Shown here in pieces: positions 17,563-20,605 of a DNA stretch of 64,000 bases. The DNA comes from an uncultured Phycisphaerales bacterium. Its GTDB lineage: Bacteria; Planctomycetota; Phycisphaerae; Tepidisphaerales; Tepidisphaeraceae. The notes below the pieces were generated by a model that ran no database searches, had not been told where the DNA came from, and worked only from the letters and a program-made list of their open reading frames with translations. The position numbers and the translations under genes are program-made. The stretch spans positions 2,176,001 to 2,240,000 of the forward strand of contig CAVWLP010000002.1 of NCBI GenBank assembly GCA_963755915.1, given 5' to 3'. How positions within the stretch are numbered: position 1 is the stretch's first letter; each line of letters starts with the position of its first letter.

Positions 17563-18342
17563 GTGCTCATCCAGTTCCAGAACACGCAGGAAGACTTCAA
17601 GGAGCTTGGCGACGCCATCACGGCCGCCCGCCGCCCCGTCAATTCGCCCATGCAGATCGTCATCCTCGTCGCCGTTTTCGGGGTTTACTACTTCGTCACA
17701 CGTTATCTATGGATTAAAGCGGGAGACCTGGACGGCCAGAATGCCTGGATCAACATGTGGATCGCCATCGTCGCCTTCGGCTTCACCTGGCTCGGCATCT
17801 CCCTCCCCTCCAGCTTCCGGGCCCGCCGATTCCCATGGCTTACCGGCCGCCAGGTCGTCTCCCTCTCCACCTTCCTGGGCCTCATCGGCGCCCTCCTCTT
17901 CGAGCACTGGCTCAACCACAAGTTCAACCCCAAGGCCCACGCCGACACCCTCACCTGGCAAGTCCTCCTCCCCCACAGCATCTGGCTCACGATCATGTTC
18001 TATGTGGCCTGCATCGGCGCCTACAACCACAGCAAGTCTCTGCCACGCCATTGGCAAAACCGCCCCGACCTCCATCGCCATCAGTCGGTCGATATCTCAG
18101 CCCAAGGCGTAGTCTTCTCTGACACTGAGACCCGGCGGGAATATCACTGGCCCGCCTTTGTAAAGGGAGAGGAGACACGGCACCTGTTTCTGCTCTTTAC
18201 CAGCGAGCACATCGGGCTGATGCTGCCCAAGAGGGCCTTTGACTCCGATGAGCAGATGGAGGCGATGCGGAATTTGATGAAGCTGATTCCCAAATCCGAA
18301 ACCCGCGGGTTCGCGGTCCTCCCGGCGGCCAAAGCCGCCTAA
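17563..18342 (+). CDS. YcxB-like membrane protein
   Basis: Four hydrophobic segments, then W....ET...FLLF....LMLPKRAF. Confidence 0.7.
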   Translation: MLIQFQNTQEDFKELGDAITAARRPVNSPMQIVILVAVFGVYYFVTRYLWIKAGDLDGQNAWINMWIAIVAFGFTWLGISLPSSFRARRFPWLTGRQVVSLSTFLGLIGALLFEHWLNHKFNPKAHADTLTWQVLLPHSIWLTIMFYVACIGAYNHSKSLPRHWQNRPDLHRHQSVDISAQGVVFSDTETRREYHWPAFVKGEETRHLFLLFTSEHIGLMLPKRAFDSDEQMEAMRNLMKLIPKSETRGFAVLPAAKAA

Positions 18343-18642
18343 GAATTTCGAACCCGCCCAGAACCCCCAGTAACCTTTCCCAACAAGCCTGAGCCGGGCC
18401 GTCCCCGGCCCGATCTTCCGCCTTTCCGCGTCCACACCAAATGCTATCGCTTTCTCTTTCTTCTATGGCAACATTGTCTCTTCTTGCGCTCTTGGCGACT
18501 TAGCGGTTAAAAATCTTTCTAACCGCCAAGAAACTATGAAGCCGAGCCTTTCTCGGGACGTGAACGGGGTCAAAATGCCCCAAGTATGAACGAGCGTACC
18601 GCGTAGGTCGCTCAAACGTCTTTTTTGAGAAAGGACTCGGCA

Positions 18643-19686
18643 ATGCGAATTCTCGCTTTGGACCTGGGAAAGAACAAGAGCGTTTTTGTGGATTATGTCA
18701 CCGGCGGTGGAGAAAGAACGTTCGGCAAGATCGGCACCAATGCCCACGAGGTGCAAAAACTACTCGAGCGGGTGCGTCCGGATCGACTGGTCATCGAGGC
18801 CGGTCCGGCGGCAGGATGGGTTTGTGATCTGGCGGAGCGGAACAATGTTCCCGTCCAGGTGGCCAATGGCAACGATGAACGCTGGCGCTGGAAGACGGTG
18901 AAGGAGAAGAGTGATCGTAAAGACGCGCTGAAGATGGCGGCGATGTCGGAGATGGATTCGCTGCCGACGGTGCACGTGCCCAAGGCATCGGTTCGGCAGT
19001 GGCGTTCATTGATTGAATACAGACACGGCCTGGTGGATCGCCGCACGGTGCTCAAGAACTCGATCCGATCAATCTACGAGCGGCAGGGTTTGTATTTGCC
19101 CTCGGCGACCAAGGCGTGGACGAAAGCGCGACTGGAGGAAATGAGGAAGGAAGCAGCGGCCGCATCGGCGGAAGATCTGTGGCTGTTTCAGATCGGTTGT
19201 GAGGTGGCGCAACTGGAGCACCTGGAGAAGCAGATCGAAACTGTCGAAAGCAAGCTTCAGGAGTTGGGCCAGGCCAACAAAGCGGTGAAACGATTGCAGG
19301 AGGTGCCCGGCGTTGGTCCGCGGCTGAGCGAGGCGGTGGCGGTGATCATTGATGATCCCAGGCGATTCAAGAATGCACGTCAGGTGGGATGTTACGTGGG
19401 TCTGACGCCGCGGCGCTGGCAGAGCGGCGACAGCGATCGCCAGGGGCGGATCAGCAAGGCAGGCAACGCGCTGCTGCGGGAGTTGCTGGTGGAGGTGGCG
19501 TGGCTGGGGGTTCATCGCAATACGTGGATGAAGGACGTGTACGAGAGGGTTCTACGTGACAGCGAGAAGCGCAAGAAGATCGCGATTGTTGCGGTAGCCA
19601 GGAGATTACTGGTGAAGCTGTGGGCGATGCTGCGGGACGGAACCCGATGGAGAGAACCCCAGCGATCGCTGACGGCGGCCACTTGA
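18643..19686 (+). CDS. IS110-family transposase/recombinase
   Basis: ILALDLGK..IEA..KSDRKDA (DEDD RuvC-like); VPGVG, YVGLTP...QSG...GRISKAGN, AIVAVARRL. Confidence 0.95.
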   Translation: MRILALDLGKNKSVFVDYVTGGGERTFGKIGTNAHEVQKLLERVRPDRLVIEAGPAAGWVCDLAERNNVPVQVANGNDERWRWKTVKEKSDRKDALKMAAMSEMDSLPTVHVPKASVRQWRSLIEYRHGLVDRRTVLKNSIRSIYERQGLYLPSATKAWTKARLEEMRKEAAAASAEDLWLFQIGCEVAQLEHLEKQIETVESKLQELGQANKAVKRLQEVPGVGPRLSEAVAVIIDDPRRFKNARQVGCYVGLTPRRWQSGDSDRQGRISKAGNALLRELLVEVAWLGVHRNTWMKDVYERVLRDSEKRKKIAIVAVARRLLVKLWAMLRDGTRWREPQRSLTAAT

Positions 19687-19689
19687 AAA

Positions 19690-19995
19690 TCGAAAAGGCG
19701 ATGACTGTCCCGACAAGTCGGTACAGGCGATGGAGTATCTCCCCTCCGGAAGACACCGTGTCAGAAAGCCGTTGTCTTCTGTGCAGGGGATTGAGTAGAG
19801 TTGAAGTGAAGTGGAATTGACGCGTTCGTGCAGGTTGAATGAGCAAGGCCAGACCCCGGTTGGCGTCTTAAGCTTCAAAGCTTGCCGCTAAGAATAGGGC
19901 TGGCCATTTGTACAGTTGAATAGGCCCGCCGCCAGGCGAGAGCACTGAATAGAAGGCTCACCCAATCGACCGCATGAGCGATCAACGCCCCTTGA
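19690..19995 (+). ncRNA. Candidate bridge/seek RNA of the IS
   Basis: Stem-loop at 19847-19905 presents two segments matching the insertion-site flanks; boundaries approximate. Confidence 0.7.
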
Positions 19996-20139
19996 CAAGG
20001 CTCGGCTCATAGAAGACGCCAAGAGCGCCAAGAAAGACAAAGAAAACGCCCCGCTTCGGGGCGTGGCTATCAATCGAGCCGACCGGCTGTTTCTGATCCG
20101 GCCCCTCTCGGCAGAAATGCCTGATTCAGTCGGCGGCCA

Positions 20140-20349
20140 TTAATTCGCCCGCACCGCCTCAAATCCATCGCACCCGCTCGCGGGGGTCACCTTGAGATGC
20201 AGCGAGGCGTGCCTGGGATGCGCACAATCATCGACAAACGTCTCCGGCGCCTTACGACTCGTGCGAATCTCGACCAGCTTGGAATCCTTCGAATGCTCTT
20301 CGCCAAAATGAGTGCACAGCCCGCATTGTCCGCTATGAAGTTGCAACAT
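20140..20349 (-). CDS. Small Cys/His-rich hypothetical protein (69 aa)
   Basis: AAGGAG RBS; CGLCTHF...C.HP.H......GCDGF. Confidence 0.65.
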   Translation of the reverse strand: MLQLHSGQCGLCTHFGEEHSKDSKLVEIRTSRKAPETFVDDCAHPRHASLHLKVTPASGCDGFEAVRAN

Positions 20350-20605
20350 GATTAGCTCCTTGAAAATGCCATCTAGTCCAGTCGAATTATCGAATCCGAA
20401 CCGCCCAAAGTCCACGCGAAAACCGCCGCATTGCAAAGTGAGAATGAGTCGCAATCTGCCTGTAAAGCCGGTATTCACGAGTCGACTGAACTCGTCAAAG
20501 TCCGCCCGCTTCGCTTGAGGACGCGGAGAGCCGTTCGAGAGCGCTCACGGGGAGCAAGCTCGCCGGCTACACGCTGGTGCGCAGATGGGTCAGGATTTTG
20601 TTTTT

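Follow-up and report, generated by a model that had tools for sequence, protein, structure and literature searches.

An IS1111-group insertion sequence from a planctomycete-type soil genome with a predicted guide RNA whose loop matches its own insertion site

The window analysed here is a 64,000-nt stretch from an uncultured Phycisphaerales bacterium (assembly GCA_963755915.1, contig CAVWLP010000002.1, positions 2,176,001 to 2,240,000 of the forward strand). At 18528-20016 it carries an insertion sequence (IS) of the IS1111 group of the IS110 family, in which a recombinase gene is followed by a long non-coding region. An initial annotation proposed that a hairpin in this region is the readable guide loop of a bridge or seek RNA. 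The analysis supports this proposal: the segment 19847-19905 is very probably (with a probability of about 0.9) the target-binding internal loop of a seekRNA/bridge RNA located in the 3' non-coding region of the IS. The element and its insertion site have the following features, given in window coordinates.

18480-18519, no strand assigned: left arm and loop of the repetitive extragenic palindrome (REP)-like target; a variant copy with TTAGCGG where the consensus has TTGGCGG.
18520-18531, plus strand: left target half TAACCGCCAAGA; the final AAGA is the junction ambiguity and contains the crossover core.
18528-20016, plus strand: insertion sequence, 1,485 bp and one additional AAGA, delimited by occupied versus empty sites and by nine genomic copies.
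18534-18548, plus strand: left subterminal inverted repeat CTATGAAGCCGAGCC; apart from one additional A, it is the right repeat in reverse complement.
18643-19686, plus strand: recombinase (transposase) gene, 347 amino acids, with the motifs LALDLG (D7), VIEAG (E52), SDRKDA (D91, D94) and GLTPRRWQSG (S261).
19999-20012, plus strand: right subterminal inverted repeat GGCTCGGCTCATAG, the counterpart of the left repeat.
20013-20034, plus strand: core (AAGA) and right target half CGCCAAGAGCGCCAAGAA, based on the right flank AAGACGCCAA in nine of nine copies and on the empty sites.

The recombinase consists of an N-terminal DEDD (RuvC-like) domain and a C-terminal Tnp domain, recognised as PF01548 (E = 9.5e-10) and PF02371 (E = 2e-24). 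With 215 bits it exceeds the cutoff of 140 for the NCBIfam model NF033542, named 'IS110 family RNA-guided transposase'. In its C-terminal half it can be aligned with two bridge recombinases of known structure, ISCro4 (PDB 9t56, E = 3e-18) and IS621 (8wt6, E = 1e-16). The motif SDRKDA is aligned with TDAVDA of ISCro4, and GLTPRRWQSG (residues 253-262) with GLTPRRYESG. The latter fits the serine-holding motif GL-P----S(t)G that is conserved among IS1111 transposases (Siddiquee et al., PMC11187229). The non-coding regions measure about 111-115 nt upstream (18528/18532-18642) and about 326-330 nt downstream (19687-20012/20016) of the gene. The left repeat, which can be written CTATGA(A)GCCGAGCC, and the right repeat are inset 2-6 nt from the IS ends, according to how AAGA is assigned; subterminal inverted repeats of 7-17 bp are a criterion of the IS1111 group (PMC11208160). 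A short upstream and a long downstream non-coding region, subterminal repeats and protein length are hallmarks of this group. Domains, serine motif, repeats, non-coding layout, a recombinase of 330-350 amino acids and site-specific insertion are all found in the element, which together with the NF033542 match and the seekRNA layout described below bears out the proposal of an IS110/IS1111 element with a bridge/seek RNA.

Nine copies of the IS were found in the genome, with 0-2 base differences from the window copy over 1,489 nt and with identical guide modules. All nine lie at the same position in the right arm of the palindrome, flanked by ...AACCGCCAAGA on the left and AAGACGCCAA... on the right. 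Uninterrupted palindromes were also recovered (CTTGGCGCTCTTGGCGTCTTGGCGGTTA - loop - TAACCGCCAAGACGCCAAGAGCGCCAAG), and the empty sites read AACCGCCAAG^ACGCCAAG, or in full CTTGGCGCTCTTGGCGTCTTGGCGGTTA - loop - TAACCGCCAAG^ACGCCAAGAGCGCCAAG. Exact copies of the 16-mer insertion site number 21 in the genome. Insertion occurs at a single sequence and in a single orientation, without a true target duplication. In the comparison with empty sites only the 4-nt AAGA is common to both junctions, and with this ambiguity the boundaries can be placed anywhere between 18528-20012 and 18532-20016. The anatomy of the element, its site specificity and the empty sites are in this way directly observed.

The target palindrome has three CGCCAAGA-type units per arm, and an intact palindrome offers one site in each arm. 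At three of the nine occupied sites (L006, L008 and L009) the left arm is absent, which indicates that the hairpin form of the target is not required. Directly outside the palindrome, at 20046-20064 on the minus strand, lies a terminator-like hairpin ACGCCCCGAAGCGGGGCGT followed by a T-run, which presumably terminates the converging minus-strand gene.

The predicted guide loop in the downstream non-coding region is built from the following parts.

19847-19905, plus strand: target-binding stem-loop with outer stem, internal loop holding two guides, and inner hairpin, based on the fold, the consensus of relatives and the covariance model R1.
19860-19869, plus strand: 5' guide UUGGCGUCUU, predicted to pair with the top strand of AAGACGCCAA (core and right target half).
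19870-19883, plus strand: inner hairpin AAGCTT-CA-AAGCTT, the spacer between the guides, with both-sided changes in four of five pairs across relatives.
19885-19893, plus strand: 3' guide CCGCUAAGA, whose predicted partner is the bottom strand of CCGCCAAGA (core and left target half), with one rU:dG wobble.

All the strings quoted in the initial annotation were found where it had placed them, including the inner hairpin and the outer stem of GGCCAG.CCC (19847-19856) with GGGCTGGCC (19897-19905). As it had claimed, TTGGCGTCTT at 19860-19869 is the exact reverse complement (10/10) of the right flank AAGACGCCAA at 20013-20022, and CCGCTAAGA at 19885-19893 matches the left flank CCGCCAAGA at 18523-18531 in eight of nine positions, or in all nine if one rU:dG pair is counted. 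The mismatch places an RNA U opposite a G of the bottom DNA strand and is present in all nine copies as well as in a relative with a 91% identical protein. The two guide matches overlap at AAGA in the target. The annotation had further noted that part of the 3' segment matches the opposite arm of the palindrome. This match exists: positions 18499-18506, which belong to the left arm, are the reverse complement of CCGCTAAG. It is taken to be incidental, since other copies of the palindrome read CTTGGCGG there. When the IS interior was shuffled 3000 times with dinucleotide composition preserved, the exact 10-mer of the 5' guide arose in two shuffles, and the 10-mer and 9-mer jointly, in the observed order and within 45 nt, in none. 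A separate test of the 3' guide in which every C or A was allowed to wobble succeeded in 826/2000 shuffles and was discarded as too permissive.

A fold had been recommended as a first check, and it does predict the hairpin: the 76-nt stretch around it folds at -31.1 kcal/mol (z -2.83), and 2/200 shuffles fold equally well. The consensus fold over eight relatives comprises the outer stem, two unpaired guide strands and the inner hairpin. Its 16 pairs are formed in 84.8% of cells, against 25.6-49.6% when the partners are slid, and ten of them show both-sided changes; the observed pairing or covariation score was reached by 0/500 shuffles. A covariance model built from eight hairpins (R1) has one match in the window, at 19847-19905, and nine in the genome, one per IS copy. 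In a sample of the phylum it matched 3 of 151 genomes, the window's own included. It also found L063, a locus outside the training set, whose 5' strand GGTTTTTCAAC is an 11-nt match to its own right flank and whose 3' strand matches its own left flank in eight of nine positions. The hairpins of L036, L039, IS5075 (L059) and an Acaryochloris element (L060) were not detected by R1.

A stable GC-rich hairpin downstream of a gene could also act as DNA or at the end of a transcript, where it would terminate or stabilise the recombinase mRNA, in which case the flank matches would be incidental. The hairpin is not followed by a T-run, and a terminator scan gave nothing within the IS on this strand. 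Such a role, moreover, gives no reason for the loop strands to track the flanks in nine lineages, as described in the following, and has next to no chance of being the correct explanation.

Relatives were sought by a protein search of 401 genomes of the phylum, in which seven genomes, the window's own included, had a match at E up to 1e-40, and by a contig scan, which yielded six loci. L041, a near-duplicate of L040, was excluded from the matrices, and L036 (30% identity) lies outside the comparisons. The relative with the 91% identical protein, L031, comes from a Phycisphaerales metagenome-assembled genome, where its four copies occupy the same palindrome family one repeat unit further along, with the flanks ...GACGCCAAGA on the left and AAGAGCGCCAAG... 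on the right. Its hairpin is that of the window element except for the 5' guide TTGGCGCTCT, which is the reverse complement of the flank AGAGCGCCAA. This match is exact in three of the four copies, and the fourth flank reads AGAGCACAAG. A three-base change in the 5' guide therefore accompanies a shift of the insertion point by one repeat unit (8-9 bp). The unchanged 3' guide fits this shift, because the left halves of both sites are nearly identical repeats.

Elements that are 36-51% identical, from other planctomycete genomes, have kept the stems via compensatory changes, and their loops match their own, differing flanks, as listed here.

L035: 5' guide and right flank AATTGAAC/GTTCAATT; 3' guide AAAAAGA, equal to the left flank.
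L038: 5' guide and right flank AGCCCCT/AGGGGCT; 3' guide CCGCCAAGA, equal to the left flank.
L040: 5' guide and right flank GTAGAGCAT/ATGCTCTAC; 3' guide CAGTTTGAA, equal to the left flank.
L042: 5' guide and right flank CGGGTGCCAT/ATGGCACCCG; 3' guide AGCAGTGAA, equal to the left flank.
L047, from the same genome as L042: 3' guide AACTGTGAA, equal to the left flank.

In a 9x9 matrix of the 5' guide region against the right flanks, the longest exact matches of the lineages to their own flanks are 10, 10, 8, 7, 6, 9, 10, 9 and 7 nt, and the own right flank is the strict row maximum in seven of nine lineages. The exceptions are L047, which matches the flank of its sister at the same target by one nt more than its own, and L043, where a contig end leaves just 7 nt of flank and the maximum of 7 is shared. 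On the 3' side, exact 9-nt equivalents occur in L038, L040, L042 and L047, where the signal is clear; it is weak or wobble-dependent in the window element, L031 and L039. The conserved RNA structure and the covariation of guides with targets are observed in these genomes, and the covariation is the decisive evidence for the predicted guide function. The guide-target comparison across homologues, which had been proposed as a check, came out in favour of the claim that the specificity can be read from the loop, and all nine copies in the window's genome lie at the site that the guides spell.

In genome G344, L042 on the one hand and L047, L051 and L058 on the other are two variants of one IS that differ in the 3' guide and the inner hairpin. 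The 3' guides, AGCAGTGAA and AACTGTGAA, exactly parallel the difference in the left flanks. Another copy in this genome, L055, has a one-base mismatch to its own guide. The locus L063 (genome G070) contains a mini element of about 235 bp, which surrounds positions 1501-1561, lies on the minus strand and lacks a recombinase gene. After its left end ACTATGAAGGAAGCC come, within about 45 nt, an intact module for the guide RNA and then the right end GGCTTCCTCATGG, as would suit a non-autonomous derivative that brings its own guide. The closest plasmid-borne relative is L060, on plasmid pREB2 of Acaryochloris marina (40% identity), which shares its ends AATCCATGTAAGCCGTG/ACGGCTTCATAGTCG with the planctomycete element L039 and whose donor-side segment GGATAGTCGG is a 7-nt match to its own right-end junction.

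Around the target-binding hairpin the fold predicts a three-way junction, which would also present a segment for the donor, that is, for the IS end.

19840-19844, plus strand: 5' strand of the closing helix, UGAGC, pairing with 19956-19960 in the minimum-energy and centroid folds.
19912-19917, plus strand: possible left-end guide ACAGTT in the 5' linker, a weak candidate; the corresponding ATAGTT in L031 is the reverse complement of the left-end AACTAT.
19913-19947, plus strand: second hairpin predicted within the three-way junction, with little sequence conservation.
19949-19955, plus strand: predicted donor-side guide AUAGAAG, of the same sense as the right-end tip and core (CATAG/AAG) and predicted to pair with the bottom strand.
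19956-19960, plus strand: 3' strand of the closing helix, GCUCA, in the same folds.

Taken as a single sequence, the whole non-coding region folds at -129.1 kcal/mol (z -4.03), and the predicted closing helix UGAGC/GCUCA encloses the target hairpin, the second hairpin and two linkers. Equivalent closing helices of differing sequence were recognised by eye around the same modules in L035, L040, L042, L043 and L063, for example CGATG/CATCG (L035), GGGATT/AATCCC (L040), GGGATGAC/GTCATCCC (L043) and GGGATC/GATCCC (L063). The consensus fold of the second module contained only five pairs, with a poor MAFFT alignment, so that the three-way junction rests on the single-sequence fold and the helices found by eye. 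A multi-branch arrangement is mentioned for 'many IS1111 orthologues' (Durrant et al., PMC11208160).

The ATAGAAG at 19949-19955 is identical to the right-end junction at 20009-20015, and the earlier suggestion that it belongs to a donor loop is strengthened by the relatives. In nine of nine lineages the donor-side segment matches the element's own right-end junction exactly over 7-8 nt, and the two vary together (segments ATAGGAGT, ATAGAAGG, ATAGTCGT, ATGGATGC, ATGGATGG and ATAGATGC); this guide-donor covariation, too, is a direct observation. Matches were also found in L063 (9 nt) and IS5075 (8 nt). In L040, L042 and L047, an AGTTTCA(C) located 5' of the closing helix matches their core and left end by eye.

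The aligned junctions of the lineages are compatible with AAACTATG... as left end, ...CAT(A/G)G(A/G) as right end and a core of two nucleotides, which would be AG in the window element, L031, L035 and L038, and TG in L040, L042, L047, L043 and L063; L039 fits this scheme poorly. For the window element, where the direct observation is the 4-nt AAGA ambiguity only, the core within AAGA is probably AG. Empty sites for the TG-core clade were found neither in G043 nor in G300, and the matches in G344 are not clean, four of the five being taken to be the guide region of the IS itself. Since clean empty sites come from the window's genome only, the core of the TG-clade lineages is inferred.

Under the same scheme, the donor guide would comprise the right-end tip (5 nt), the dinucleotide core and the first one or two bases of the right flank. 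The base beyond the 7-nt match equals the first right-flank base in seven of nine distinct junctions (L035, L038, L039, L040, L042/L047, L043 and L063) and differs from it in the window element and L031. It is conceivable, though the odds are somewhat against it, that the donor-side guide reads beyond the IS end in this clade. If so, the RNA would check the junction of right end and target, which is both the excision substrate and the insertion product, and the donor guide would be partly dependent on the target. A flank-reading base would resemble the 'handshake' of IS621 (PMC11208160, PMC11208158), though the strand differs; in the available parts of PMC11187229 no contact of this type is described for the seekRNAs of IS1111 elements.

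A number of observations weigh against reading the hairpin as a guide. A 9-mer with at most one mismatch, as in the 3' guide, arose in 614/3000 shuffles and is not significant alone. A scan of 18000-20600 with 4,227 Rfam models at E up to 1 returned no relevant family (a chance sR28 match had E = 0.06), so that the RNA has no confirmation from a curated model. In the 3'-guide matrix, the window element (6 nt) and L031 (5 nt) show no own-flank signal by exact matching, which is ascribed to the rU:dG wobble. The 3' strand discriminates poorly in any case, since AAGAA is common to the left flanks of several lineages, and the loop of L035 has a 10-nt match to the left flank of L039 as opposed to 8 nt to its own. 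The core of L031 lies one position nearer to the inner stem than in the window element, an unexplained register shift. For the left end, matches of 4-6 nt were obtained with no diagonal in the lineage matrix, and no guide could be identified confidently. To these is added that the single-sequence fold pairs the two guide segments together (UUGGCG/CGCUAA, 6 bp). The initial description of these segments as single-stranded consequently holds for the consensus of the eight relatives and not for this fold. The pairing is explained by the target halves being direct repeats of CGCCAAGA, so that sense and antisense guides are complementary.

The ability of the guide strands to pair would also be expected if the hairpin were a degenerate copy of the palindrome captured from a former insertion site, whose likeness to the flanks reflects shared DNA ancestry without any guiding. 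The loop does resemble a miniature palindrome, in that the consensus left arm (cTTGGCGTCTTggcgg) contains TTGGCGTCTT exactly and the right arm is similar to CCGCTAAGA. However, relatives with targets other than the palindrome (L035, L040, L042 and L063, with the loop and flank sequences given above) keep the stems, and their loops match their own unrelated flanks. Nothing in the palindrome corresponds to the outer and inner stems, which are conserved by compensatory change, and L031 has altered the guide alone, in step with its shifted site. A captured palindrome is extremely unlikely and, because the relatives have unrelated targets, can be regarded as excluded.

The remaining observations that speak against the guide RNA concern its expression. 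A scan for sigma-70-like promoters found no complete site in the integrated copy, and contigs from two RNA libraries overlap the region, although contigs cannot show transcription. One of them (X9) is identical to the window over 19646-19850. The other (X20) is of the 91% relative's type, covers 19818-20016 and extends into the flanks of that relative. These points would agree with an element that has the RNA layout but is a recent relic that lacks RNA production or recombinase activity, so that the specificity can be read and no longer acts. The window copy also has a private T at 19049, inside the recombinase gene, where the other eight copies have C. Against this stand the nine nearly identical copies with their identical guide modules, and the open reading frame with all catalytic motifs; the word 'intact' in the initial annotation is in keeping with both, as far as genome data can tell. 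A promoter formed at the circle junction has been described for ISEc11, and expression in the family normally depends on it (PMC11187229), which is why the lack of a promoter in the integrated copy is expected. That the element is a relic is very unlikely. The following feature may belong to a promoter of this kind.

19992-19997, plus strand: TTGACA; the right repeat ends 15 nt further downstream, and relatives have TTGAC or TTGCC 13-17 nt from the right-end tip.

This TTGACA is probably the -35 box of a promoter that would be completed upon joining of the ends in the circle. No good -10 box could be placed for it.

Between the stop codon of the recombinase gene and the predicted guide RNA lies one further structure.

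19726-19790, plus strand: strong hairpin 5' of the guide RNA and outside the guide loop, also present in unrelated IS21-family elements of the same genome.

The region of this hairpin (19700-19797) reads CCCC.CCGGAAGACACCG ... GTTGTCTTCTG ... GGGG. Two IS21-family elements of this genome have a similar sequence at the 3' end of their istB frame, with 84-86% identity to the hairpin over 58 bp. The exact hairpin pattern occurs 40 times, nine times in this IS and 31 times in IS21 elements of a single type; another type of IS21, with at least nine copies, has a near variant. The stem is invariant, without compensatory changes, and has no Rfam match. It could be an RNA 3' element or a host-factor site that is common to unrelated mobile elements.

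By every feature that can be tested at the level of sequence, the predicted RNA is an IS1111-type seekRNA/bridge RNA. As in ISEc11, ISPa11 and ISKpn4, it is located downstream of the gene. As in the IS1111 seekRNAs, the loop first matches the top strand and then, further 3', the bottom strand, with an overlap between these matches in the target, and the subterminal inverted repeats, the recombinase of 330-350 amino acids and the GL-P----S(t)G motif of these elements are all present (PMC11187229). ISPa11 likewise targets a REP, and the natural retargeting between the close relatives ISEc11 and ISXne4 is paralleled by the window element and L031. The present case differs from the elements of that paper in that three altered bases in one of the guides retarget the element by a single repeat unit of the same palindrome, in that the host is a planctomycete-type soil genome, and in that the element is known here from sequence alone.

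In the case of IS621 (PMC11208160, PMC11208158), a single bridge RNA reads target and donor, as is predicted here. In both elements one guide is directed to the bottom strand on the left and the other to the top strand on the right, with the core in both, and the catalytic residues D11, E60, D102, D105 and S241 of IS621 (DEDD and serine chemistry) have counterparts among the motifs listed above. IS621 differs in having the RNA in the left end, subterminal repeats of only 2-3 bp, a reversed order of the guide strands, a CT core where the present core lies within AAGA, and donor nucleotides in a second internal loop, whereas they would lie in a multi-branch junction here. Among the classical IS1111-family elements are IS5075 and IS4321, which target Tn21-type inverted repeats. 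In the non-coding region of IS5075, AAAACGGAA is by eye the reverse complement of its own right flank, and GGATAGATTC matches the right-end junction CATAGATTC; their order relative to each other agrees with that in the window element. The donor-side segment of IS5075 compared by eye with this junction is ATAGATTC. The IS5075 protein is 22.9% identical to the window recombinase, and its hairpin is missed by R1, which indicates that the RNA scaffolds now differ too much for this model to recognise both. ISPpu9 of Pseudomonas putida, an IS110-family element located in REP sequences, has a small-RNA gene downstream of its transposase and additional copies of this RNA gene elsewhere in the genome, which resemble the gene-less L063; the likeness is by description only (PMC12288879).

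Transcription, protein binding and catalysis can be proposed from what is known of the family. The RNA would be transcribed with or after the recombinase gene, likely from the promoter completed at the end junction of the circle. It would then fold as a three-way junction to which the DEDD/Ser recombinase binds, and the circular IS would be recombined into one fixed position in the right arm of the REP-like palindrome.

The finding leaves the knowledge of the mechanism unchanged, as the RNA-guided mechanism has been known since 2024. What is new is the distant host lineage, the natural retargeting by one repeat unit and, possibly, a donor-guide base that reads the flank. As an RNA-guided recombinase system from a soil genome of planctomycete type, the element is a clean example: the guide, the target, the empty sites and a retargeted sister can all be recovered from the genomes themselves. 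With a protein about 23% identical to that of IS5075, it widens the choice of bridge/seek recombinases for trials as genome-insertion tools by one distant branch.

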